DNA from: Patescibacteria group bacterium | Lineage (GTDB): Bacteria > Patescibacteriota > Patescibacteriia > JBHPGJ01 | Assembly: GCA_042570545.1 (NCBI GenBank) | Contig: JBHPGJ010000003.1 | Span: 8,214 to 72,213 of the forward strand | Direction of reading: 5' to 3' | DNA length: 64,000 bases | In this document: positions 11,174-42,562 of the stretch, in pieces | How the letters are laid out: every line of letters begins with the position of its first letter | Position numbering within the stretch: position 1 is the stretch's first letter | The notes under the pieces: generated by a model | Database searches by the model: none | Told to the model about the DNA's origin: nothing | What the model saw: the letters and a program-made list of their open reading frames with translations, nothing else | Translations under genes and position numbers: made by a program

Positions 11174-11866
11174 TTAAAACAATGAATAAACAATTACAGC
11201 CACCCCGCCAATTATACCCAGATAACCTAATATCTTCATTAATCCCGCTGTCCTGGCCAGATCTTTCTCCACTTGTTTCTCAGATTTATAGCTTAGAATA
11301 AAATCACCCTGACCTTTTTGTAGTACCATATTATTTTGATCACCGCCAACATAACCATAAGCATATACCGGACCACCAACTAGCAAAGCCTCTTCTTTTA
11401 CTTTATTCTGATGACCAGCCAGCATATTAACCACTCCCTTAAGTACCGGATTGTTAAGTTCGTCACCGGGACGTACTATTTGTTCGCCTAAAGATTGGGG
11501 TTCAATATTAGCACCCTGCGGATTGACAGCCAATTGTCCGGTGCTGTCCTGGATATAAAACGGCGCACTCTGTTTGTCGGAACTGGTTTTTTCCCAACGG
11601 CGCTGTTCGCGGCCCTGGTTGTCTTGAGTAACCGTTTCGCGCTGCAGTTCATATTCATAGTAAACACAATCGCGCTGGGTAAAGGGAGTTTTTAAAGATT
11701 GATTTGAGCCAACGGTGCCAATAATTTTAACAATTTGTCCGGGCTGGACCTTGTCCACCGTTAACGCCTGAGTTTGCTTAAGACTGGCGTGAGTTTGTTT
11801 TTTTCGTTTAGCCAAAAATATTAATAAGGCTCCTATTGCCATGGCTATTAATCCACCATATAACAT
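11174..11866 (-). CDS. Membrane protein with N- and C-terminal TM helices flanking a beta-rich domain (GIDE-like topology)
   Basis: 230 aa. TM at residues 1-20 and at the C-terminus (ILGYLGIIGGVAVIVYSLF). Confidence 0.45.
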   Translation of the reverse strand: MLYGGLIAMAIGALLIFLAKRKKQTHASLKQTQALTVDKVQPGQIVKIIGTVGSNQSLKTPFTQRDCVYYEYELQRETVTQDNQGREQRRWEKTSSDKQSAPFYIQDSTGQLAVNPQGANIEPQSLGEQIVRPGDELNNPVLKGVVNMLAGHQNKVKEEALLVGGPVYAYGYVGGDQNNMVLQKGQGDFILSYKSEKQVEKDLARTAGLMKILGYLGIIGGVAVIVYSLF

Positions 11867-12208: not shown

Positions 12209-12784
12209 CTAACGGATCAGCCGGTGATGAGTAAACTTCTCGCGGTCGTTGCGCAGCTGAAGATACAGGTATTGGCCCGGTGGCAACCGGCCGGGATAGC
12301 TAACGACGTATCGTCCACTGCTCATATATTGACCATTCCATGACCAAGTGCGGTTACTGCCGACCACGCCAGCTAAGTAGAGTGATACCTGACCGGGTCG
12401 GTTGATGCTGAAATGGATCAATGATTGACCGGTGCTGATGTCGAAACTGACCGACATGGTGGTCTGTGGCGGACGATAGCGGTAACCTTGGTCGTTATAG
12501 ATCGTCCAGCGGAACGTTCCCCAGCTACGGTGGTGCCGAATCGGGCCTCGATGGTAACGGGGACGTAGTGGCCGGACTATATAGCGATAGCCCACTCGGC
12601 CATTACGATAGACCCGGGGTTGCTCATAGCAGTACTGATCCCGGAACGTGGTTTGCAGGCTGCGAAAGCCTACGCTTTGAGCGTTGGCATCATCGGCCAA
12701 GAAAATACTGGCCACTATGCCGATCAATATGGCAACCGTTCCACCGACTATGACTATTAGCAAAATGAGCGCGAATTTCTTCAC
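12209..12784 (-). CDS. Secreted or anchored Arg/Tyr-rich basic protein on a GC-rich island
   Basis: 191 aa with an N-terminal TM/signal. Repetitive YRxxR and RPxR pattern. GC about 53%. Confidence 0.45.
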   Translation of the reverse strand: MKKFALILLIVIVGGTVAILIGIVASIFLADDANAQSVGFRSLQTTFRDQYCYEQPRVYRNGRVGYRYIVRPLRPRYHRGPIRHHRSWGTFRWTIYNDQGYRYRPPQTTMSVSFDISTGQSLIHFSINRPGQVSLYLAGVVGSNRTWSWNGQYMSSGRYVVSYPGRLPPGQYLYLQLRNDREKFTHHRLIR

Positions 12785-13918: not shown

Positions 13919-14347
13919 ATGTCTGAGAAATGGACGCATTTTGTTGACAAGGATGAGAATGTCGGCACTGATGGCGGAGTAGCCGTTCTCGAAGTCAGTG
14001 ACGAAGTAAGGTCAGACCCCGAAGTTACCGGTATTTTCTTTTCTGGAGAACCCGAACACGGCGTGGAGCTGATCGAGGGCGACTGTGCTCCCGGCGATGT
14101 TGATGTCGACGAACTGATCACCCGACTGATGCCGCACGAGGACGAAATGCTGGAGCTGAACTACGGCGATCCGATTCAGCTCACCGGCACCCTGCTCGGT
14201 ATTGTACAATACGATCGTATCGGCCCGGATTGGTCGGCCATCGAGTACCCCGACAATCGCTTCCTACACCTGCGGCTGACCGATGGTACCGAGGCTTTAG
14301 TGCCAATCACGTTCATTGATCCTGACACCCTACGGGTAGTCATCTGA
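13919..14347 (+). CDS. Highly acidic small protein on a GC-rich island
   Basis: 142 aa. Strong SD aggaggtgggccATG. GC about 55%. A convergent terminator hairpin lies downstream (about 14370-14400). Confidence 0.5.
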   Translation: MSEKWTHFVDKDENVGTDGGVAVLEVSDEVRSDPEVTGIFFSGEPEHGVELIEGDCAPGDVDVDELITRLMPHEDEMLELNYGDPIQLTGTLLGIVQYDRIGPDWSAIEYPDNRFLHLRLTDGTEALVPITFIDPDTLRVVI

Positions 14348-14416: not shown

Positions 14417-17400
14417 CTATTCACTTATTTCCTCTCTGGGAATATATAAATCTTTTGACACACAAGTTCCATTCTCCTGACATCTCTTATTAGACGAACA
14501 GCCACAAACCTGGCAGTCGTTAATTAACTCATTATCCTCACAGAATAATGGCTTTTTTGACGAACATTCATTGATATAGGTCTTATCCGAACACTGCATT
14601 TTGAAATTACCAGTATGACGATTGTCATGCGAGAAGAGTGGCCAATCATTAATAGAGGGGATTTCCGGCACTCCTAAATCCCACACATAAATAGAACCAC
14701 GTTGCTTAGACCTATCATTAATAAAATCTTTATCGCGATTAGAGGTGGCTACGAGCTCCAATAAATTATCACCGTCAAGATCCACAATCATTGCTGGCGC
14801 GAGAGAATAAGACTCTGTGAGCTTTGGAAAGTCGGCTAATAGAGTGCCATCAAAATTCCAGGCAAAAACACCGCCACCATCATAAATACTACTATAATCA
14901 GTGGTGATAATCTCTGGTTCGCCGTCATTGTCTATATCTGCAGTAACGCTGCCGTATACATCAACCCAGGATGGGTTTTGTGGCCAGTCCTTGGCTATTG
15001 ATCCATCATGCTCAATCACAAATGTTTCAATATTATCATTACTAATTACCACTTCCAGGGTACCGTCTCCTTCAAAATCCGTTAGAGCAGGTGAAGAAAA
15101 GAAGTTGCCACCGCCTTGCAGGGCTGGCCAGCCTGTTAAATCTTGTCCATTTTTATCTAAGGCATAAACACCAAGGTCGTCCATCGTTCCAAATATTATA
15201 TCCGCGTTACCATCATTATCAATATCCCCAACTGCTGGTGAGTTAAATATATTTCCATCAATATCCACTGGCCAGCCGTTTACATATGAACAGTCAGAAT
15301 TAAGAACATTAATTCTTCCTGCAGATCTTTGATAGCCCACTTCTCTTAAGCTGATAATTACAATTTCTAACTCCTGATCTTCATCAAAGTTACCAACTGC
15401 TGGAGTGCCATATTCAACAAACCAATATTGATATGTAAAAGTATCAGTTAAGGTACATGTGGAGACAGGTGATGCATCATTATTAAGAATCTTAATTATA
15501 TTATCTTCTCCTTGTTGATCATGAATAATAACCTCAAGTTGCCCGTCTAGATCCAGATCCGCCATAGCCAGGCCTGTAATCTCTGATTCAAAATCCACTG
15601 GCCATCCTGGCACTTCTGATCCGTCTAAATTATAAGCATGAATTTGAGACGGTGAGGGTGAAAATCCCCAATTTTGAAAATGAACAACTATTTCATCTTT
15701 GCTATCATTATCAATGTCACCGACTACTGGTTTGTGCATATTTCCTCCAAGTAGTTTATCCCCGCTTACCCCGACATCAATCAAACCAATTTCATTTCCT
15801 GAAGCATTGTATATATGTAATTGGGGGGGGCAGTCACCAGCGTAAAATACTATCTCATTTTTACCATCGCCGTTAAAATCACCGACATTACCATCAAGAT
15901 CACCAGCCCATGCTTTACAATCAGCCAGTTCATGATCAATTCGCACAGGCCAACCCATTTTAAAATTATCAAAATATAATACTACCGTCTCCTCAGAATC
16001 GGAGTATATATCATAATTAACCATTAGTCTCAGCTCATATAAACCCTTGCTACCAATAACAGACGTATCCCAATATCCAATAATACTTTCATCAGTGTCA
16101 TCTAGCGTTAATCCAACATTGGACCAGTCGCCATCACTTATACGCCACTCAAGCACTGAATTTATTATATGATGCCCTTTTAAATCGCCTTTTATAACCA
16201 ATTCGTCGCCTATTCTATATATATCGTAATTCAACGGCTCATTAATTTTTACATTACTCACAAATATTGGAATAGTTTGTACAGACGATAAACCGCTCCC
16301 GTTAAAGACTTCGAGCTTCAAAGATATAGTATTATCCGGTGCGACCAAAGTATCAAGGCTGCCTAATGTCCCTCTATCAACCTCTAAAGTACCACTATTT
16401 TCTAGAGTGATGCCCTCGGTATACCACTGAGTTACTTCCTCTGGTTCGCCAACACCCCATGAAAGAGTATAATGGTCAAAGGTTGCTGTTTCCGAGGTGC
16501 CTTTTTTTGCCACACCGCTAATATTGATAGAATCTGTAACTTCATCATAATAAGTCGGGATCATAATACCTGCCAAGGGTTCATCAAATGTTGGCATTTT
16601 AATCGGAGTTTCGGGATCCCCAATCACATTTAGCTCATAAGCAACAAATCGTATATAAGGATCAGACAAATTACCAAAATTCTTAAACTTAGACTGGTAA
16701 TTTGCTTTTGCAATATTAGTAATGCCATCTACTATCATCGTATCAACAAACTGCCGATGAAACCTTTGCGAAGGCCCGTCTGTGGAATCAAATCTACCCC
16801 ACCCAAATCTGGAATTTCCAACAAAAGCAAATGCTCCGTTGTCATCCAGCACAAAATGCTCTGCAATAGAATCAGATTCTGTATAATCTCCCTCGTAATT
16901 CCAGTTGTCAAATGAGGCTGGATAGCATCCCTGAGAATATACCAAGAAATAATCTGTATTGGTCAGTTGATCCAAATCAGTATCTCCGCTGTCACCACAA
17001 TATGATCCTGGCGAATTAAACGGCGCATGACATAATTTCATATTATAAAGCGTACTGGAATGGCCTAAGTGGTTGATAAAATTAACGCCCTGATTCATGA
17101 TTTCGATTAATTCTGTATTAGACCATGAATAAACTTCAGAATCATAAATAGGATCAATTAAATAGTCTTCGTATAATCCATTAGTATTGTAACCATCATG
17201 GTAACCGCCCCATTTGATCTGCTCCATTGTTTCTGTAGCATATTCAGCCACTGTACCAAATCCCAAATGCTCCCCAACTGTTAATGCTTTTTTTAAGTAG
17301 TCAGCATCTGATTGCTCATAAGCAATTGTTTTACTGACGAAGGTCTGAACTTCAGCTGATGAATCAACTGGCGCTCTGCCTATATAAACATCGCCCATCA

Positions 17401-18880
17401 TTGGCAACTCACCGCCGCCAATTCCATCTCCTGGCTCGGCAAATTTGCCATCGCCGTCATAATCAAAATTAGAATAAACCGTACCATAATATATATCACT
17501 TGGGATACCGGCGCTATCGCTTAAACCAAAATCATAAAAAAGTCTTGCTGGAATAATCATATCACCGCTTTCACCACCTACATCTCCACCATCACCATCA
17601 CCACCCAACAAAACGTATTCCGTTGTTGAATTCGCCCAGACATCTCTGATAAAATTCCTGATTCTGGAAGCGTTATCATCATGTCCGGCCACATGGCAAT
17701 AATCATCCCCGAAATAAAAGTTCAATGATCTCATGTAAGCACTGTTGCATTCATAGTCCGGATTAGAGAGAATTGATTCAACCGTAACAACGGTAGAGCT
17801 GATGGGATTATTCGGTCGGCTTGCTTTCCAGTCAGCCAGGGGCTGAAAATCACTAACAAATTCTTCGCTGGTGATAATGACATAATTAAAATCAGACTGC
17901 GCAGTTTGGGAGCTTTCATCACTGCCTGATTCAGTAATTAATTTTTCATAGGCAGGCTCATCAATAGACTTTCCTTTTTTATAAGTATTTAATTTATCAT
18001 AATTATCCACCCTCACTTTTACTTCTTCCTCATCAACGGGCAGCTTTCTAAAAGAGGCCGGCACTTCATATCCTGCAACCTCCTTTGTTTTTACCTCAAA
18101 AGAAATATCCGGATAATATTCAACTATTCTGTCTTTCGGAAAGTACTTAACCGGAAAAATGTTTAAGATCAATATTGAGTAACCCCGAAACTCCTGTATT
18201 GAAGCAATTTCATAATCTTTTACCGGGAATGGCTTGCTGGATTCATAAATCTCCGGATCAGGGGCAGTTCTTACAAATAACTCTGTTTTTAGATTCCCTT
18301 CATCATCCAATAAATACTTTGGCACCTCTCCTCCAAATTTTTTCTTGACAAGTTCAATGTCTGGAGACGGAACAAATTCATCATAAAAAATTAATTCATC
18401 TGAATGTGTGGTACTGACAATCTCATTAATAGCAGGTAGATACGACAGAGGAATCGGCTGTTGAACTGGTTCAATATTAACATTTTTGAACACTTGTTTA
18501 CTTTTTTTACTTATACTAACTGAGTCAACGTCATGTCCTTGCGGTAGCAGGATCCTTTTTGTCATAACTGGCAAACTGGGCTCTCCTAGATTTCCGATTG
18601 GATTCGTTCCTTCAATAGTAACTGAATGAAATCCAAAATCCTTATTATCAATCCTTGGTGTTGGGGCCGATACTTGCAAGGAAAATGTGGGTTTAACAAT
18701 TGATTTAAAAATTCCAATGTCTTTGCCAAATAAACCATAGCTTGCTGCCGCATAAGCAAAAAATCCAACAGAAATTACTAACAGTAAAGCTGTAACAATT
18801 AACGTTTTAGCATTAACATAAATTCCAATATCTGATTTTACTTCGGTTGATATTGATTCTGTTATTTTTTGAGAAGTCAT
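14417..18880 (-). CDS. Giant surface protein: N-terminal signal anchor, propeptide, C25 (gingipain-like) cysteine peptidase domain, a seven-bladed FG-GAP beta-propeller region, and a C-terminal Cys-rich (EGF-like) module
   Basis: 1487 aa. Catalytic His in INHLGHSS and catalytic Cys in VYSQGCYPASF (C25 His/Cys dyad context), plus HVAGHDDNA, YVLLGGDGDGGD and GNSRFGWG. Seven FG-GAP-like Ca-binding repeats: GDFNGDGKNEIV, GDIDNDSKDEIV, ADLDLDGQLEVI, GDIDNDGNADII, TDFEGDGTLEVV, ADIDNDGEPEII and VDLDGDNLLELV. The C-terminus has 10 Cys in about 60 aa. Confidence 0.8.
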   Translation of the reverse strand: MTSQKITESISTEVKSDIGIYVNAKTLIVTALLLVISVGFFAYAAASYGLFGKDIGIFKSIVKPTFSLQVSAPTPRIDNKDFGFHSVTIEGTNPIGNLGEPSLPVMTKRILLPQGHDVDSVSISKKSKQVFKNVNIEPVQQPIPLSYLPAINEIVSTTHSDELIFYDEFVPSPDIELVKKKFGGEVPKYLLDDEGNLKTELFVRTAPDPEIYESSKPFPVKDYEIASIQEFRGYSILILNIFPVKYFPKDRIVEYYPDISFEVKTKEVAGYEVPASFRKLPVDEEEVKVRVDNYDKLNTYKKGKSIDEPAYEKLITESGSDESSQTAQSDFNYVIITSEEFVSDFQPLADWKASRPNNPISSTVVTVESILSNPDYECNSAYMRSLNFYFGDDYCHVAGHDDNASRIRNFIRDVWANSTTEYVLLGGDGDGGDVGGESGDMIIPARLFYDFGLSDSAGIPSDIYYGTVYSNFDYDGDGKFAEPGDGIGGGELPMMGDVYIGRAPVDSSAEVQTFVSKTIAYEQSDADYLKKALTVGEHLGFGTVAEYATETMEQIKWGGYHDGYNTNGLYEDYLIDPIYDSEVYSWSNTELIEIMNQGVNFINHLGHSSTLYNMKLCHAPFNSPGSYCGDSGDTDLDQLTNTDYFLVYSQGCYPASFDNWNYEGDYTESDSIAEHFVLDDNGAFAFVGNSRFGWGRFDSTDGPSQRFHRQFVDTMIVDGITNIAKANYQSKFKNFGNLSDPYIRFVAYELNVIGDPETPIKMPTFDEPLAGIMIPTYYDEVTDSINISGVAKKGTSETATFDHYTLSWGVGEPEEVTQWYTEGITLENSGTLEVDRGTLGSLDTLVAPDNTISLKLEVFNGSGLSSVQTIPIFVSNVKINEPLNYDIYRIGDELVIKGDLKGHHIINSVLEWRISDGDWSNVGLTLDDTDESIIGYWDTSVIGSKGLYELRLMVNYDIYSDSEETVVLYFDNFKMGWPVRIDHELADCKAWAGDLDGNVGDFNGDGKNEIVFYAGDCPPQLHIYNASGNEIGLIDVGVSGDKLLGGNMHKPVVGDIDNDSKDEIVVHFQNWGFSPSPSQIHAYNLDGSEVPGWPVDFESEITGLAMADLDLDGQLEVIIHDQQGEDNIIKILNNDASPVSTCTLTDTFTYQYWFVEYGTPAVGNFDEDQELEIVIISLREVGYQRSAGRINVLNSDCSYVNGWPVDIDGNIFNSPAVGDIDNDGNADIIFGTMDDLGVYALDKNGQDLTGWPALQGGGNFFSSPALTDFEGDGTLEVVISNDNIETFVIEHDGSIAKDWPQNPSWVDVYGSVTADIDNDGEPEIITTDYSSIYDGGGVFAWNFDGTLLADFPKLTESYSLAPAMIVDLDGDNLLELVATSNRDKDFINDRSKQRGSIYVWDLGVPEIPSINDWPLFSHDNRHTGNFKMQCSDKTYINECSSKKPLFCEDNELINDCQVCGCSSNKRCQENGTCVSKDLYIPREEISE

Positions 18881-19069
18881 ATTATTCTAGATTTGAATTT
18901 ATATAATAAAAAAAGCCCCAAAAAGGAGCGTCTTATTTTGAAAATTTACTCTGGACAAAAGCATCATCCATAAAATTTTATTTAATTTCTTTAGATAATC
19001 TTACCTTATCTTGGCTAATTTGTAAATGGAAATACTTGATGCTTATTGGTAAGTGGGGTTTTTATAATT

Positions 19070-19237
19070 CTATTCACAAGGCTCGGTTGGTTCCGGCGCT
19101 GATGGCACGCCGTGCTTGACCCACCGGCCATCCTGACACAGCCAGGTGTCCTCATCCCCGGCAATAAAGCGGATGCCCAGGATAACCACAACAACTATCA
19201 GTACGATCATCACAATTTTTAAGATTTTATTCTTCAT
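19070..19237 (-). CDS. Small (55 aa) membrane peptide, GC-rich, start 6 nt after the SRAP gene stop
   Basis: MKNKILKIVMIVLIVVVVILGIRFIAGDEDTWLCQDGRWVKHGVPSAPEPTEPCE. Below the 60-aa ORF-track cutoff. No SD, but possibly coupled. GC about 55%. Confidence 0.3.
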   Translation of the reverse strand: MKNKILKIVMIVLIVVVVILGIRFIAGDEDTWLCQDGRWVKHGVPSAPEPTEPCE

Positions 19238-19955: not shown

Positions 19956-20378
19956 TCAAAAACGGGAAGCTGTCTTCCCGTTTTTATCCTGTTGCTTCAG
20001 TCCATGTCGGATAGCCGTGATTATACCGGTGGCTAGCGATACTAACCAAATAATCAGGGCCTTATATCCATACTGTCGGATATAATTAGTACACTTGATT
20101 ATCCGCCATGAGCCGATATGAGAGGCAAAAATCAGATTATGCCCAGCCGCTAGCCCGACTGTTGTCATGGCCAACAAACCAAGCCACCCGACAAAGCCGT
20201 GAAAACTAGTTGGCCCGGCGGCCAACAGGCCCATCTTTATACTAGCCAGCCAGTCAAGGGCCAGGCCGATTACCAAAACCTGAAAATATCGGCGACGGTA
20301 CCAGTGACTAAGTCCGTAAAGACCGTAGCAATATAGCACCAGAACGATTATGACAAGAACGACTGCGTCGTACATCAC
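19956..20378 (-). CDS. Polytopic membrane protein, unknown function
   Basis: 140 aa with about 4 TM. Confidence 0.45.
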   Translation of the reverse strand: MMYDAVVLVIIVLVLYCYGLYGLSHWYRRRYFQVLVIGLALDWLASIKMGLLAAGPTSFHGFVGWLGLLAMTTVGLAAGHNLIFASHIGSWRIIKCTNYIRQYGYKALIIWLVSLATGIITAIRHGLKQQDKNGKTASRF

Positions 20379-27535: not shown

Positions 27536-27867
27536 TATTTTACTTTATTATTACGTTTTTTCTTAAAAGATGCCAGCGGTAGTTGCTGTTGCTCTCCTTG
27601 TAGTTTGCGAGCCATCTGCTTGCCCTTGGTGGTCAACCTGACTGATTCAATATACCATTTATGAGGCGTCCGACGACCATAGCCGACGGCTAGCTCATGG
27701 TCGATCAGCCTTTCAATACTGCGGGTCACAATATTTTGTTGATCTTTTGATTTTGGCTTTTGTTTTTGGTCGGTGTAAAAATCTTGGAATTCTAATCGTA
27801 GTATTTGTTTTATTGGCCGTCGGTAGCTCTGGAGTAGAATGTAGCGCTGCAGTTTTGATAGACGCAT
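27535..27867 (-). CDS. Small basic hypothetical protein
   Basis: 110 aa, Lys/Arg-rich. Overlapping start and stop with both neighbours. Confidence 0.4.
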   Translation of the reverse strand: MRLSKLQRYILLQSYRRPIKQILRLEFQDFYTDQKQKPKSKDQQNIVTRSIERLIDHELAVGYGRRTPHKWYIESVRLTTKGKQMARKLQGEQQQLPLASFKKKRNNKVK

Positions 27868-29270
27868 TACTTCTTCTTTTTAATCTCGAGATGAAGTTCC
27901 GCCAATTGTTCGGGGGTGACTTCGGTTGGTGCTCCCATCAAGGGATCACTGACGTCATTACTGAGTGGGAAGGCGATAACCTCGCGAATATTCTTCTCCC
28001 CAGCAAATATCGATACCAATCGGTCAATACCTGGAGCAATACCGCCATGAGGTGGTACACCATACGTAAAAGCGGTTAATAAATGTTCAAAATCTTTTTT
28101 ATGTTTTTCGGTAAAACCGATACAATCAAAAACCTTGCTTTGTATCTCGGGATCATGTATACGAATGCTACCACCGCCAACCTCTTGTCCATTTAGAACC
28201 ATATCATGCTGCTGGCCGCGAGCCTGACCGGGATCAGTATCCAGTAAAGGTATATCCTCAGTTTTTGGCGCCGTAAACATATGATGACTGGGTGCCCACT
28301 TCTCACCGGCGCCGTAAAAATAATCATCGGCCGATTGTTTCGTGAACAGCGGAAAATCAGTAATCCAGGCAAAGGCTAGCTCGTTTGGATCTTTCTTATC
28401 CTTTCTCAAGTCAGGGGAATCGGTACTATATTTATCCATCGCTTCTTTATAGGTCAGTCGGGGCCAGGGTTGGGTGGTAATTTTTTTATCTGGGAAAAGT
28501 TCTTTGACTAAACTTGAAAAAAGTTTTTCTGTGATTTGTAATATATCATCTTGTTCGACAAAACTCATTTCCAAATCCAATTGATAAAACTCTCCCGGTG
28601 ACCGATCGGCCCGCGCATCTTCATCGCGAAAGCAAGGAGCAATCTGATAATATCTTTCAAAACCGGCTACCATCAATAACTGCTTATACTGCTGGGGACT
28701 TTGTGGTAAGGCAAAAAATTTACCAGGATGTACCCGTGATGGCACCAAATAATCCCGTGCCCCCTCGGGAGTTGATTTTGTTAGTATCGGAGTTTGAATC
28801 TCAACAAAATCATTATTATTAAGATATTCACGGATATAGCGAATAACACTGGCCCGTACTCTCAGGTTGCGAGCCATCCGCTTGTGACGCAAATCTAGAT
28901 AACGATATTTTAAGCGTAAATCATCACTAGCTTGCCGATCTTCATTAACTATTTCAAAGGGAGGAGTTTTGGCCCGGCTTAATATTACTAACTCGGTTGC
29001 CGAAATCTCAACCTGTCCGGTAGACACATCTTTATTCACATTTTTAGATTGGCGTTCTACCACCTGGCCAGTTACTTGAATAACAAATTCTGGTCTAAGT
29101 TTTTGGGCTTCTTTAATCGGAGCATCAAACACTACTTGAACTAAACCAGATCGATCACGCAGATCAATAAATACGATTTGTCCCATCCGCCTGACTCGAT
29201 GCACCCAGCCGGCTAGATTAACTGTCTTATCTACTAATTTAGTTGTTTGGCTGGTTAATATCCTGTTCAT
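27867..29270 (-). CDS. aspS: Aspartate--tRNA ligase, short bacterial-type (no GAD insertion domain)
   Basis: 467 aa. N-terminal OB fold (NLAGWVHRVRRMGQIVFIDLRDRSG), class II motif 2 CFRDEDARADRSPGEFYQLDLEMSF (compare E. coli AspRS [23 protein letters not shown]), and motif 3 GGIAPGIDRLV. Confidence 0.85.
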   Translation of the reverse strand: MNRILTSQTTKLVDKTVNLAGWVHRVRRMGQIVFIDLRDRSGLVQVVFDAPIKEAQKLRPEFVIQVTGQVVERQSKNVNKDVSTGQVEISATELVILSRAKTPPFEIVNEDRQASDDLRLKYRYLDLRHKRMARNLRVRASVIRYIREYLNNNDFVEIQTPILTKSTPEGARDYLVPSRVHPGKFFALPQSPQQYKQLLMVAGFERYYQIAPCFRDEDARADRSPGEFYQLDLEMSFVEQDDILQITEKLFSSLVKELFPDKKITTQPWPRLTYKEAMDKYSTDSPDLRKDKKDPNELAFAWITDFPLFTKQSADDYFYGAGEKWAPSHHMFTAPKTEDIPLLDTDPGQARGQQHDMVLNGQEVGGGSIRIHDPEIQSKVFDCIGFTEKHKKDFEHLLTAFTYGVPPHGGIAPGIDRLVSIFAGEKNIREVIAFPLSNDVSDPLMGAPTEVTPEQLAELHLEIKKKK

Positions 29271-29717: not shown

Positions 29718-31010
29718 TTATGGACGTAAACGATTCAGCATCCGAGGGAAGGGAATAGTTTCTCTGATATGCGTAATCTTGCCCAGCCAAGCGACTACTC
29801 TTTCTAACCCCACGCCAAATCCAGAATGTGGAAATGTACCGTACTTACGCAAATCAAGATACCATTCATATTCTTTCTGGGGCAGTTTGAATTCCCTTAA
29901 TTTCTTAACTAACAGATTATAATCGCTAATTCGCTCTGAGCCACCAATTATTTCACCATAGCCCTCGGGGGCGATCAGATCGGCATTAAGAACTAGTTTT
30001 TCATTCTCGGGATCAGGTTGCATATAAAAGGCTTTTATAGCGGCCGGATACTTGGTGATAAATACGGGCTGATCATATTCCTGACTGATTGTAGTTTCAT
30101 CTTCAGCGCCTAGGTCACTACCCCATTTAATATTGGAGCCTTTCTGCTGTAAAGTCTTAATTGCTTCATCATAGGTCAAGCGCGGAAAAGGAGTTCTAAT
30201 TTTTTTCAAAGATTCTGGATCGCGTTCTAGTATTTTTAATTCATCCAGCGATTCATCTAATACACTTTTTATAACCGAAACGATGAGATTTTCTTGAATT
30301 TGTAAATTTTCTTCATGTTCGACAAAAGCCGCTTCCGCATCAAGCATCCAAAACTCGGCTAAGTGTCGTCGAGTCTTTGATTTCTCGGCTCGAAATGTGG
30401 GTCCAAAATCATATACCCTGCCCAGAGCTGCTGCTGTGGCTTCGATATAAAGCTGTCCCGTCTGGGCCAAATATGCGGTTTCACCGTGAAACTCGGTTTT
30501 AAATAAGGTGGTCGTCCCTTCAGCAGCAGTAGGAGTGAGAATTGGTGAATCGGTTAATACAAAACCATTTTCTTTCATGTATGATCTCAGGGCCCAGACG
30601 ATCTGGTCACGCAGCTTCAAGGCTGCTCTCTGCCGACTTGAACGAAGCCAAATATGCCGGTGGTCCATTAGAAACTGGGTACCGTGGGCTTTCTTGGCAA
30701 TGGGATAATCATCAGCGATCTGTATAATTTCAACATTCTTTCCAGTTAACTCAAATCCAGAAGGCGATCTCTTTTCCTGTTTTACTTCTCCAGTAATTAT
30801 GACCGATGATTCAATGGTTATTTTTTCCAGTGTTTTAAAAGTATCATCACTGACAGCTTTTTGTTCAACTACGACTTGTATCACTCCTGTACCATCTCTG
30901 ATTTGCAGAAAAAATATTTTCCCACTTGAACGGATGTTAAATACCCAGCCTTTTAAATGAATGGTCTGTCCGATATATTTACCGATATCTTTTATATATG
31001 CTACTGACAT
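29718..31010 (-). CDS. asnS: Asparagine--tRNA ligase
   Basis: 430 aa. Motif 2 FRAEKSKTRRHLAEFWMLDAE matches the AsnRS signature (compare E. coli RHLAEFWMLEPE). Motif 3 GFGVGLERVV. Confidence 0.85.
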   Translation of the reverse strand: MSVAYIKDIGKYIGQTIHLKGWVFNIRSSGKIFFLQIRDGTGVIQVVVEQKAVSDDTFKTLEKITIESSVIITGEVKQEKRSPSGFELTGKNVEIIQIADDYPIAKKAHGTQFLMDHRHIWLRSSRQRAALKLRDQIVWALRSYMKENGFVLTDSPILTPTAAEGTTTLFKTEFHGETAYLAQTGQLYIEATAAALGRVYDFGPTFRAEKSKTRRHLAEFWMLDAEAAFVEHEENLQIQENLIVSVIKSVLDESLDELKILERDPESLKKIRTPFPRLTYDEAIKTLQQKGSNIKWGSDLGAEDETTISQEYDQPVFITKYPAAIKAFYMQPDPENEKLVLNADLIAPEGYGEIIGGSERISDYNLLVKKLREFKLPQKEYEWYLDLRKYGTFPHSGFGVGLERVVAWLGKITHIRETIPFPRMLNRLRP

Positions 31011-34955: not shown

Positions 34956-36647
34956 CTAATTCTTTTTTGCTTTAGCAACTAACATTATCAATAGTACCAA
35001 TACCACCGCTACCAGCAAAGTTGTTAGCCATATTTTTGCACCTAGACCAAATTTAGTGCTGTCTTCCGTAGCTGTGGTAGCGGTAGTGGTGGCTGCAGGA
35101 ATATTTGTAGTAGTAACATTAAAATTAATTGCTTCACTTTGACTTATATTATCACCTTTGGTATCGATGATTTTTATCTGCACCTTATGTTCTCCCGGTT
35201 CTAATGGGCCAGGTAGGGTGTATGACCAGTCACCATCACCATTACTGAACGTGGTAGCAATCAATGTCTCCTGGCTAGCTATCGATAAAATTACAGTTGC
35301 ATTCGGTTGAGTTGTGCCACTGAATTTTATGGCTTCATCATCAGTAAATTGTAGCGTTGTTCCGGTTTTGGCGGTAATGACTTCCCCGGCTTCAATAAAT
35401 TCCATAATACTTACATTTCCCAGTACAGAGGTTAGGCCTGCCGTCGGGGCTTCAACTGGAATATTTTCTTGAAGCCAAGCAGACAAACGATCAATTGGCG
35501 TAGAGTGGTCAATATGAAACTGCATTTCCGTACAGCGGGGATAGCGGTTCCAGTATTGATTATAAGTAGTATAGACCTGTTCTAGGTACTGATCATCAGA
35601 ATTATTAGGGGTTAATTTAGATGATAATCTGATGGTATCATCACCGGCGGTGGTAGTAGATATTTTACAGCCAAATTTTTCAGTCAGAGCCTCACTGTTC
35701 AGCCACTCGACAAGTCGTTCAATTGGCGTAGAGTGGTCATAATGAAATTGCATTTCCGTACAACGAGGATATCGATTCCAAACACCATAATAAGCATTAT
35801 ATACCCGTTTAAAGTATGTATCGATATCACTACCAGTAGTAAACTCTTTATTAATTCGTATAGTATTTTCATCAGCGCCGGATATGCTAAAGGCACAGCC
35901 ATAAGCACTGGTTACTGCGTTATCTGCTATGGCTATCTGTCCTGAAGCCAGGGTAGTAAATGTTAATATATCAGAAGTAACATCAGCATCAGCATCAAGT
36001 ACGCCATATAATTCACGATAGCTGTCGGATACTGAAGCTGTGAACCTTATATAATATGTAGTCGAGGGATTTAGGGGTTCAATTTTTCGTACATGTACTA
36101 GGCCACCAGCCCCTGCGCGCCCACCTCCCAGGCTGTATACTTCGTTGGGTAATGTATCGGAAACAGTACCGTAGTTGTATTTAATTATTCCCTCTTTGGA
36201 TAAATTTACGTTAATAAAGGCTGACGTATCGGTTATGCCATCTATCTCAATATTATCTACGGCGATACCACGTTTGGTTGTGCTAAATGTATTTTCACCT
36301 GACACGGTTTGATTATCAGCCCCGTCTATCGCAGTTACTTGATAATAATAAGCAGTATCATATTCAAGACCGGTCAACACCGCCACCACCCGGTTGCTTC
36401 CCTGCACATTACCGGTAATGGTTTCAGTGTAATTTCCTAGTGAAGTACCATATTTTATATTGCCGGTTATTGGCTCGGTTGACCGCCAATCGATAGAATA
36501 ACTAACCTTTTCAGCTTCTTGATTAAGATGGGCGCTTATATATATGATTGGTGGCGCATCGGGATCTTGGGCATCAACCGTACTATGTAAAAAAAGAAAC
36601 CCCATTAATAAAACTACCATATATATTAAGGTTGATAACTTTTTCAT
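34956..36647 (-). CDS. Surface protein: signal peptide, fibronectin type III-like domain, two internal repeats, Ig-like C-terminal region, C-terminal TM and basic tail
   Basis: 563 aa. An FN3-like stretch (LTGLEYDTAYYYQVTAIDGADN). A duplicated roughly 60-aa module (YFKRVYNAYYGVWNRYPRCTEMQFHYDHSTPIERLVEWL / YLEQVYTTYNQYWNRYPRCTEMQFHIDHSTPIDRLSAWL). C-terminus LTTLLVAVVLVLLIMLVAKAKKN. Confidence 0.6.
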   Translation of the reverse strand: MKKLSTLIYMVVLLMGFLFLHSTVDAQDPDAPPIIYISAHLNQEAEKVSYSIDWRSTEPITGNIKYGTSLGNYTETITGNVQGSNRVVAVLTGLEYDTAYYYQVTAIDGADNQTVSGENTFSTTKRGIAVDNIEIDGITDTSAFINVNLSKEGIIKYNYGTVSDTLPNEVYSLGGGRAGAGGLVHVRKIEPLNPSTTYYIRFTASVSDSYRELYGVLDADADVTSDILTFTTLASGQIAIADNAVTSAYGCAFSISGADENTIRINKEFTTGSDIDTYFKRVYNAYYGVWNRYPRCTEMQFHYDHSTPIERLVEWLNSEALTEKFGCKISTTTAGDDTIRLSSKLTPNNSDDQYLEQVYTTYNQYWNRYPRCTEMQFHIDHSTPIDRLSAWLQENIPVEAPTAGLTSVLGNVSIMEFIEAGEVITAKTGTTLQFTDDEAIKFSGTTQPNATVILSIASQETLIATTFSNGDGDWSYTLPGPLEPGEHKVQIKIIDTKGDNISQSEAINFNVTTTNIPAATTTATTATEDSTKFGLGAKIWLTTLLVAVVLVLLIMLVAKAKKN

Positions 36648-40189: not shown

Positions 40190-42562
40190 TTAGTTAGACT
40201 TTTTTCGTCGAAAGGCTAACTTTTTTGGTCTGACAAGCACAATTCCTACTGCCACCAACAGCAGTCCACTGACAAACATCAGATAATCTTTAAACTGGAT
40301 TCCCGTGTCAGCCAGCGCACCCAATACTTCAGGTACGCGAATTTCCAATGAAGCTGTGTCTTGTACTTCATCGTGATTATCGGCCCAGGTGACAGCAATA
40401 TTGTCATAGGTGCCAGCTGTCTGATTACTTTTGATAGTTACCTCATAATTCGTTTCCGTACTCTTTCCCGGCTGTAGGTCACCCAGCTCCCATTCTTGCG
40501 TATCCTTACCATCACTATAAGTAAAACCAGCCGGTAGTGTATCCATCAACATGGTGTTCAGGGCAGCCCCTTCGCCTACGTTGGCTACGGTAATGGTATA
40601 CTGTACCGTATCTCCGGGATTAGCAAATTCTTGGCCAACTTCCTTAACTATTTCTAGCACTGGTTCAGTTACCTCACCTAATACTTGTGGCACATTTACC
40701 ACCACTAGGGCATTATCGGAAGCAATTTTCTGCTTTACTATTGTCAAGGTTGGCTGGGCAGCCGTAACAGAGAAATTAGCCGGAACTAATGTCTTTTCTT
40801 CAACCACTCCTTCTTCACCATAAACGGTACCGAATATTGTGACTTCATTTAGCAGCTCATCACCATCCTGAACTTCCTCAGATACGGTTACCGTTATTGT
40901 TTCTGAACCAGTAACTACTGGGGTATGCGGTCCGATATATGTCCAGGTTACAGTATGCTTTTGGGCATCATAGGTTGCTGTTCCGGTGGCGCCAGCGAAA
41001 GCGACTTCGGCTGGTAAAGTATCTACTACTACAACTTCATCAACATTCATAACACCAGTTAATTCCCAATCAATGGTATAAGTCACCGTATCGTCTGGCT
41101 CAACCTCGGTCGAATCAGCTGATTTGGTGATATTAACATCGAAGTCTGGCTGGTTACCAAAGTTACACATTTGACGTGGTACAAATTCACGACTAATTGT
41201 TGCTACTTGAGGTGATAAACAGGTGCTTTCACCTTCTGGCAATATTATGGTGTGACAGTTGTTATTCGCCGGGTGTGTTTGTTTATAGCTATCTTGCTGT
41301 ACTTCACATATATCATATGTACCAGCTGGTAAATTGAACTGGTAATTTCCATTCACATCTGTTTGGGTACTAGCCACTAACGAAGTTTCTTGTCGAGCTT
41401 CAATTGTCCAATTTTCAAGTTTTGGTTCACAGTCTGGTTCTATAACTTCGTCAACATTAATAGATGTAGATTCACAATCTCTTTCACCATTGCCATTAAT
41501 ATCGTGCCACTTATACCCATGAACCGGATAGGTTTCTTGAACATTCCATGAGACACAATAATATGCTTCGTCTGCATTTGGTCTGCTTATCCATTCAAGG
41601 TTGTCATAATTTTTTACGTCATTATTACAGTAGAATTCAGCCGTATAATGATTGCTATTACTTGTGCCAGTGAAAGGAATATATCCGTCCTGCCATACTT
41701 CTCTAAACCAGAAAGTTTCAGTTTGATCATTCTCAATTTGATCGAGGTCAAGTTCAACCATGGTCATTCCGTTGCTATCGGTTGGGCCAAATGTACTCCA
41801 GAGACCACTTGCTTCACCCGTATTATCACCAGGGTTATAATCAGGATGACTAGTAGATACGTTTATGCGCCACTGGAAGTCCCAGCCAGCTGCGAATTCA
41901 CAACTATCGTGTCCATCCACCCAAACTTGAGCAGTATTTGCGTCGATTATAAAAGATCCGCCCTTGTGGCGATCAGGCAGTTCAGATTCATCAGTACAAA
42001 CTATTTTGTGTGCCACTATTGTTACTGGACCAAGTGGTTCCTCAATAATTTCAACAATGCTTCTGGTCTCGCATGAGTAACCTTTTCCATAAAGTGACTC
42101 CAGAATTGCAAAATCAACATCATCCACTATCCCATTACCATCAAAATCGCCACTTAAATCACTGCCGGCCTGTGCGATGCTAAACATTGACAGATCGATC
42201 AGATCCACCACCCCGTCGCCATTCATGTCCGGACAAGCAGGTACTTGATCAAAGCTATTATACCAATCGGCACATGAAAAACTGGCTGATGGATACACGC
42301 TCTCAAACATTGCAAAATCAATATCATCGACCGTGCCACTGCCGTCAAAATCACCCGACGGATGGTTATCGTTGTGTGCGATACCAAACATCGAGAAATC
42401 TACCAAATCAATTACCCCATCAGAATTCATGTCCGGACAAGGTAGCACCCCCGATTCGGCTACAGCCGGTCTTATCATTGTCCCAATTAGAGACATATTA
42501 ATTACCGTGATTGCCATGATAAAAACATGGAATCCCCGGCTAAATGTATGTTTGTTAAACAT
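40190..42562 (-). CDS. Surface protein: signal/TM, two tandem N-terminal dockerin-type modules, Cys-containing central domain, DUF11-like repeat region, C-terminal LAXTG-type sorting signal
   Basis: 790 aa. Dockerin Ca-binding repeats DMNSDGVIDLVD / DFDGSGTVDDID and DMNGDGVVDLID / DFDGNGIVDDVD. DUF11-like beta-repeats (ITKSADSTEVEPDDTVTYTIDW; ITVANVGEGAAL). C-terminus LADTG, then a hydrophobic stretch (IQFKDYLMFVSGLLLVAVGIVLV), then RPKKLAFRRKKSN. A terminator hairpin lies downstream (40150-40185). Confidence 0.65.
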   Translation of the reverse strand: MFNKHTFSRGFHVFIMAITVINMSLIGTMIRPAVAESGVLPCPDMNSDGVIDLVDFSMFGIAHNDNHPSGDFDGSGTVDDIDFAMFESVYPSASFSCADWYNSFDQVPACPDMNGDGVVDLIDLSMFSIAQAGSDLSGDFDGNGIVDDVDFAILESLYGKGYSCETRSIVEIIEEPLGPVTIVAHKIVCTDESELPDRHKGGSFIIDANTAQVWVDGHDSCEFAAGWDFQWRINVSTSHPDYNPGDNTGEASGLWSTFGPTDSNGMTMVELDLDQIENDQTETFWFREVWQDGYIPFTGTSNSNHYTAEFYCNNDVKNYDNLEWISRPNADEAYYCVSWNVQETYPVHGYKWHDINGNGERDCESTSINVDEVIEPDCEPKLENWTIEARQETSLVASTQTDVNGNYQFNLPAGTYDICEVQQDSYKQTHPANNNCHTIILPEGESTCLSPQVATISREFVPRQMCNFGNQPDFDVNITKSADSTEVEPDDTVTYTIDWELTGVMNVDEVVVVDTLPAEVAFAGATGTATYDAQKHTVTWTYIGPHTPVVTGSETITVTVSEEVQDGDELLNEVTIFGTVYGEEGVVEEKTLVPANFSVTAAQPTLTIVKQKIASDNALVVVNVPQVLGEVTEPVLEIVKEVGQEFANPGDTVQYTITVANVGEGAALNTMLMDTLPAGFTYSDGKDTQEWELGDLQPGKSTETNYEVTIKSNQTAGTYDNIAVTWADNHDEVQDTASLEIRVPEVLGALADTGIQFKDYLMFVSGLLLVAVGIVLVRPKKLAFRRKKSN

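Follow-up and report, generated by a model that had tools for sequence, protein, structure and literature searches.

A predicted exported C25 (gingipain-family) cysteine peptidase with an FG-GAP propeller in a Patescibacteria genome

Background

What would a reduced-genome Patescibacteria cell do with a protein of 1487 residues that joins a predicted protease to a predicted binding module, and from where might it have obtained the gene? The question is raised by a 64,000-nucleotide stretch of contig JBHPGJ010000003.1 (assembly GCA_042570545.1, positions 8,214 to 72,213, forward strand), which was analyzed as a whole and is called the window below. The window is bacterial, and encodes EF-Tu, EF-G, SecY, ribosomal protein L2, DnaB and three tRNAs; its largest open reading frame (ORF), as the initial annotation of this DNA had stated, is located at 14417..18880 on the minus strand, starts with ATG and encodes 1487 residues plus a stop, the runner-up having 895. 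That annotation described the gene as a fusion of a gingipain-like C25 protease with a seven-bladed, integrin-type FG-GAP propeller and an epidermal growth factor (EGF)-like tail, and saw in the fusion a possible device for attachment to, and degradation of, a host surface. The database protein MFC1662732.1, from a 91-kb contig, is 100% identical to the ORF and bears the title 'C25 family cysteine peptidase [Patescibacteria group bacterium]'; the protein is thus already annotated. Its domain set is of a known kind, and the understanding of C25 peptidases is left as it was. On the basis of sequence comparison and structure models, we predict, with a probability of roughly three in four, that the gene encodes an exported multi-domain C25 (gingipain) cysteine endopeptidase that is made as an inactive zymogen.

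Catalytic domain and predicted dyad

The assignment to peptidase family C25 rests on concordant Pfam, profile and structural matches. Residues 333–758 (16607..17884, minus strand) match Peptidase_C25 (PF01364) with an E-value of 4e-53 and 181 bits against a cut-off of 23, covering positions 1–372 of the 374 in the model, and the Peptidase_C25, Propeptide_C25 and FG-GAP matches all exceed their gathering scores. A phmmer search of the PDB with the full single sequence gave no match, and a profile of relatives was required. For this profile, and for the analysis of conservation, residues 60–990 were aligned with 46 relatives, giving 47 sequences; the profile retrieved RgpB (1cvr, 3e-11) and Kgp (about 2e-8), the gingipains of Porphyromonas gingivalis (MEROPS family C25, clan CD). 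The two motifs pointed out in the initial annotation, INHLGHSS at residue 602 and SQGCYPASF at residue 649, fall where they should: the family consensus 'NHlGH' is aligned with 'NYTGH' of RgpB, which contains His211, and 'SqGCysGaF' with 'DVACVNGDF', which contains Cys244. His607 (codon 17060..17062) and Cys652 (codon 16925..16927, both minus strand) are therefore the predicted catalytic dyad. Both are invariant across the alignment, as is His604, so that conservation of the catalytic residues, on which the initial annotation had staked its reading, holds under proper alignment. Glu537 is also invariant, and is located two alignment positions away from Glu152, the third catalytic residue of RgpB, for which it is at most a candidate equivalent.

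An AlphaFold2 model of residues 60–990, with a mean predicted local distance difference test score (pLDDT) of 78.5 and a predicted template modelling score (pTM) of 0.80, agrees with the profile alignment. When the model was compared to the PDB using Foldseek, the best matches were RgpB (4ief_B, 1e-15) and Kgp (6i9a and 4rbm, about 2e-15), with a probability of 1.00, and the significant matches were limited to RgpB, Kgp, their prodomains and PorU (6za2, 6e-8). The catalytic domain is thus modelled as a caspase-like α/β gingipain fold and the protein is, by sequence and model, a member of the gingipain family with an intact predicted dyad.

PorU belongs to the same family, and its match raises the alternative of a sortase or transpeptidase of that type, or of a catalytically dead adhesin. 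We regard this reading as scarcely credible. Although the NCBIfam PorU equivalogs do register on the query, they do so far below threshold (35.5 bits against 420 for one model, 25 bits against 450 for another), the gingipains fit the structure model far better than PorU does, and no Pfam or NCBIfam model of a type IX secretion system C-terminal domain matched the protein. Patescibacteria are not known to possess either an outer membrane or a type IX system, and the invariant catalytic His and Cys argue against a dead enzyme. The PorU/sortase interpretation was rejected on the grounds of the low score, the better gingipain matches and the lack of the C-terminal domain.

Between the catalytic His and Cys lies a loop bounded by a pair of cysteines, C617...C628 (MKLCHAPFNSPGSYCGDSG, about 16997–17032, minus strand). 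The loop is common to a Micrarchaeota protein discussed below and to one further relative (P0004), and is missing from the gingipains; its two cysteines may form a disulfide that is particular to this subfamily and close to the active site.

Prodomain and export

The catalytic domain is preceded by the elements expected of a secreted zymogen. A Kyte-Doolittle scan of the ORF found a single hydrophobic segment, at residues ~26–48 (18737..18805, minus strand), followed by AYAAAS, and no C-terminal anchor or second segment; the C-terminal end, beyond the last module, is hydrophilic. No in-frame alternative start that would shorten the 25-residue N-terminal region is present between M1 and the segment. 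Classical signal peptides are found in homologues of the protein. The segment may be a signal anchor, as the initial annotation had it, or else a long signal peptide that is cleaved off.

Residues ~64–270 (18071..18691, minus strand), with an insertion at ~150–171, form a predicted gingipain-type prodomain. The Pfam match to Propeptide_C25 (PF08126) has an E-value of 8e-8 (32 bits against a cut-off of 22), the profile matches are to the prodomains of Kgp (5mun, 8e-10) and RgpB (4ief_A, 1e-6), and Foldseek retrieves the same gingipain prodomains (4ief_A/C and 5mun) at 1e-9 to 6e-8. An acidic, partly disordered linker follows at residues ~271–332 (17885..18070, minus strand), with low pLDDT at model residues 263–268, and is a candidate site of propeptide removal.

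Taken in order, these elements suggest how the protein would work. The N-terminal hydrophobic segment would direct it across the membrane through the Sec pathway, SecY being encoded in the window. By homology to the prodomains of RgpB and Kgp, the prodomain would keep the enzyme inactive until its own removal, after which the catalytic domain would cleave proteins using Cys652 and His607. Since the prodomain is located between the sole hydrophobic segment and the enzyme, activation should also free the mature enzyme from the membrane.

The resemblance to RgpB and Kgp extends through the inhibitory prodomain, the caspase-like His/Cys domain and the Ig-like domain that follows. These two proteins are the top profile and fold matches of the query, yet identity in the structural alignments is only ~13–15%. 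The query has neither a type IX secretion C-terminal domain nor haemagglutinin/adhesin domains, and their place is taken by a second immunoglobulin (Ig)-like domain together with the eight-bladed propeller and the Cys-rich module. It differs from the gingipains also in a subfamily motif, LLGGDGDGxDVGGESGDxIIPxR, and in the Cys-pair loop, and its host is thought to be a monoderm Candidate Phyla Radiation (CPR) bacterium.

Ig-like domains and propeller

The first Ig-like β-sandwich domain, at residues ~765–876 (16253..16588, minus strand), is all-β and has high pLDDT in the model, and is supported by Foldseek alignments to the Kgp catalytic and immunoglobulin superfamily (IgSF) domains that span about 580 columns. 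The second, at residues ~877–972 (15965..16252, minus strand), was recognized by BLASTP: the stand-alone protein P0121 aligns with the query at 39% identity over 630 columns, beginning in this domain. A second P0121 alignment ties the first Ig-like domain to the same domain of P0121, and the two (15965–16588, minus strand) are, as judged from these alignments, paralogues.

The propeller occupies residues ~973–1425 (14606..15964, minus strand) and is recognized by Pfam (FG-GAP_3, PF13517, E=3e-17 over six stretches; FG-GAP, PF01839, E=3e-9), by its motifs and in the structure model. Ca-type DxDxDG motifs start at residues 1001, 1055, 1108, 1165, 1219, 1268, 1315 and 1367, at a spacing of ~53 residues, with six of the loops canonical and two degenerate. 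For the AlphaFold2 model of residues 960–1487 (pLDDT 85, pTM 0.85), the best Foldseek matches are the eight-bladed Cake8, with a template modelling (TM) score of 0.84, Scone-E, Bagel8, the Vibrio biofilm adhesin Bap1 and YxaL. Eight repeats at this spacing, together with the eight-bladed best folds, indicate a propeller of eight blades and not seven. The FG-GAP propeller with Ca-type loops proposed in the initial annotation is therefore upheld, and its blade number and integrin-α type are not. Integrin α propellers do have FG-GAP repeats with DxDxDGxxD Ca-type loops; however, they have seven blades against the eight repeats of the query, and integrin α-V (E about 5e-8) ranks below the eight-bladed folds, of which Cake8, Bap1, YxaL and CRTAC1 match better. 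The integrin-type candidate was rejected on both counts, the number of repeats and the rank of the folds.

The closest sequences to this part of the protein are stand-alone Ig plus FG-GAP proteins of ~770 residues (P0121–P0134), the named ones from Thermoplasmata or Euryarchaeota. They share 39–42% identity with the query over 630 columns, covering the second Ig-like domain and the eight-repeat propeller, and in both the propeller ends in a WPxFHHDxxRTG motif. They differ from the query in having no protease domain and in their tails, which are CARDB-like, PKD or dockerin-like and not the Cys module. That the second Ig-like domain and propeller are closer to stand-alone proteins of archaeal type points to cassette shuffling.

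Eight-cysteine tail

The protein ends in a module at residues ~1428–1475 (14456..14599, minus strand) that was delimited by its cysteine count and a module scan. It contains eight cysteines in 44 residues (1430–1473) with a CxxCxC core, so that the Cys-rich module of the initial annotation stands, at a lower count than the ten cysteines in about 60 residues given there. No Pfam model, EGF included, matched the tail even at E<=10; with eight cysteines and the CxxCxC core in place of the six-Cys EGF pattern, the EGF-like candidate was rejected.

The module, with a consensus of ~45 residues (CSDGT..G.CS..KPL[YF]C.NG.LI.NC..CGC), was used to scan the full set of 1.84 billion representative proteins, among which 672 matched at E<=1e-3 and 141 at E<=1e-10. 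Tandem arrays are frequent, up to 33 copies in a protein of 7312 residues, and in proteins built mostly of the module no Pfam model matches it. P0226 and the fragment P0345, the latter 59% identical to the query tail, likewise carry the module behind an FG-GAP propeller, and no further copy was found in the window or in 81 related loci. It is thus a widespread mobile repeat that lacks a Pfam model and, being common and often arranged in long arrays, merits definition as a family.

Relatives and origin of the gene

The prodomain and catalytic half of the protein has hundreds of relatives at 33–42% identity. More than 511 loci in GTDB species genomes encode relatives. The best relatives belong to DPANN archaea (Micrarchaeota, Iainarchaeum, Nanoarchaeota, Altarchaeum and Woesearchaeota), followed by many Methanothrix, Thermoplasmata, Bathyarchaeota and Promethearchaeota, and by bacteria such as Omnitrophota, Nitrospira and Planctomycetes. 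The environmental C25 peptidases, including those of Micrarchaeota, Iainarchaeum, Nanoarchaeota, Methanothrix, Thermoplasmata, Bathyarchaeota and Omnitrophota, share the prodomain and catalytic domain with the query and differ in member-specific tails (CARDB, PKD, β-helix, dockerin and others), and not one of the 81 related loci encodes the Cys-rich module. In the top 80 loci, Patescibacteria are represented by a single further entry, from Shapirobacteria, at 30% identity. A scan for close relatives of the whole protein in GTDB species genomes found none; the source genome therefore has no close representative among them.

Hidden Markov model (HMM) searches over all ORFs of the 81 related loci identified a C25 domain and a propeller in a single ORF at six, including one from Micrarchaeota, one from Methanophagales, one from Omnitrophica and two from Thermoplasmatales. 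The Micrarchaeota protein (L002) has the same Pfam architecture as the query, and the two align collinearly across the prodomain and on into the propeller, with 31% identity over about 1600 columns; the neighbours of its gene are not diagnostic of archaea, so that its assignment follows the title of its record. The C25–propeller fusion is therefore recurrent and not unique, and the idea of a special fusion does not survive its occurrence in several archaeal and bacterial lineages, free-living ones included, in addition to the family name that the protein already had. A literature search found no paper that describes a C25–FG-GAP fusion.

At two Omnitrophota loci (L050, 8684.., and L051, 2034..) a stand-alone FG-GAP propeller protein adjoins an unfused C25 gene. 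The arrangement hints that fusion and neighbourhood are alternative forms of one pairing.

A neighbour-joining tree, the only tree constructed, was computed from 85 catalytic domains with 100 bootstraps, with sampling confined to the 80 loci closest to the query and using taxon labels as given on the deposited metagenome-assembled genomes. The sister group of the query is all DPANN in 91 of the 100 bootstraps, and the Shapirobacteria domain is only 72nd of 84 by distance to the query. The gene itself has a native-like composition: its content of guanine plus cytosine (GC) is 0.388 against 0.409 for the window, and that at third codon positions (GC3) is 0.307 against 0.379 +/- 0.074 for the other ORFs. 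Nesting among DPANN sequences, combined with such a composition, suggests an old inter-domain transfer of the gene, which could have proceeded in either direction. As far as these sequence comparisons reach, the affinity to DPANN archaea and not to other bacteria is the only unusual trait of the gene. CPR bacteria and DPANN archaea have been reported to exchange membrane-associated genes, possibly in connection with host interaction (PMC12455944), and the affinity described here would be a further case of such sharing of surface-protein genes.

Predicted function

Once released, the Ig-like domains, propeller and eight-Cys tail would bind a protein substrate, the cell's own envelope or the surface of another cell. 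What the enzyme is for can be approached through its better studied relatives: extracellular C25 peptidases are abundant and expressed in sediment archaea, where they are interpreted as serving nutrient proteolysis (PMC6461988; see also PMC8359207), and have been predicted in Nanohaloarchaeota (PMC9563170). By this analogy, a Patescibacteria cell with its reduced genome would most probably use the enzyme to gain peptides and amino acids from external protein.

Several points weigh against the prediction of an exported, active C25 zymogen with a binding tail. In the profile alignment, the position that corresponds to the S1 residue of RgpB, Asp163, shows no clear conservation; model confidence (pLDDT) is low for the second Ig-like domain and for the tail; and activity, processing, localization and binding by the propeller are all predictions from sequence and models.

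The same architecture was interpreted in the initial annotation as a device for attachment to a host surface and its degradation. In such an attack, the propeller and Cys tail would dock an episymbiont on its host, whose surface proteins the C25 domain would cut for access or nutrients. The source is a Patescibacteria genome, and the cultivated members of the group are episymbionts (PMC11623550); the catalytic domain groups with DPANN archaea and then with Shapirobacteria and Omnitrophota, all ultra-small; the gene exchange between CPR bacteria and DPANN archaea mentioned above may be host-related; and the propeller is similar to that of the biofilm adhesin Bap1. However, the combination of C25 and propeller is present in the non-episymbiotic Methanophagales and Thermoplasmatales, members of the family abound in Methanothrix, Bathyarchaeota and Promethearchaeota, for which nutrient proteolysis is the accepted explanation, and the neighbours of the gene (SRAP, a GT4 glycosyltransferase, a cupin and small hypothetical proteins) suggest no host-interaction system. 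We consider host attack unlikely, and no better supported than ordinary extracellular proteolysis. A broader version of the same idea, which strikes us as quite improbable, is that ultra-small episymbionts (DPANN archaea, Patescibacteria and perhaps Omnitrophota) have passed the protease–propeller cassette across domains as a weapon or grapple for the cell surface, which would dock on a host envelope through the propeller and the eight-Cys module and sever host proteins there with the C25 domain. If so, both halves of the protein would owe their archaeal affinity to a lifestyle in common, or even to a host that is an archaeon. Under the preferred prediction of an exported zymogen, the joining of a protease to a binding propeller makes the protein a reasonable candidate for amino-acid acquisition or for cell–cell interaction in CPR bacteria.

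The locus

The gene appears to be its own transcription unit, since its downstream neighbour is convergent and a terminator-like hairpin (18915..18929, minus strand, recognized by consensus match only), probably the end of the preceding small gene, is located 35 nucleotides upstream of its start codon. This isolation bears on a further explanation, according to which the enzyme matures the cell's own secreted surface proteins and does not serve feeding. Porphyromonas gingipains also process other surface proteins, and further large proteins that are probably secreted are encoded in the window (at 40190–42562 and 34956–36647). Yet the gene has no operon link, and no conserved partner gene was present in the related loci examined; we find a maturation role very doubtful.

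Small GC-rich ORFs lie on both sides of the gene, as the initial annotation had observed, at 12209–12784 (minus strand, GC 0.54), 13919–14347 (plus, 0.545), 19070–19237 (minus, 0.52) and 19956–20378 (minus, 0.485), that is with a rounded GC of 0.49–0.55 and a GC3 of ~0.52–0.61. None of the four has a Pfam match. Two of them resemble small membrane proteins.

Four other features of the window are worth recording. A 230-residue protein (11174–11866, minus strand) is matched by the GIDE domain (E=1e-16), which Pfam labels 'E3 ubiquitin ligase', a label that one would not expect in a CPR bacterium. The first of the large, probably secreted proteins (40190–42562, minus strand, 790 residues) has DUF11/CARDB/SdrD-B-like domains and weak dockerin matches, and the second (34956–36647, minus strand, 563 residues) has a purple-acid-phosphatase N domain and Big_13. 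Finally, two paralogues of class II (D/K/N type) aminoacyl-tRNA synthetases are encoded nearly adjacent to each other, at 27867–29270 and 29718–31010, both on the minus strand.

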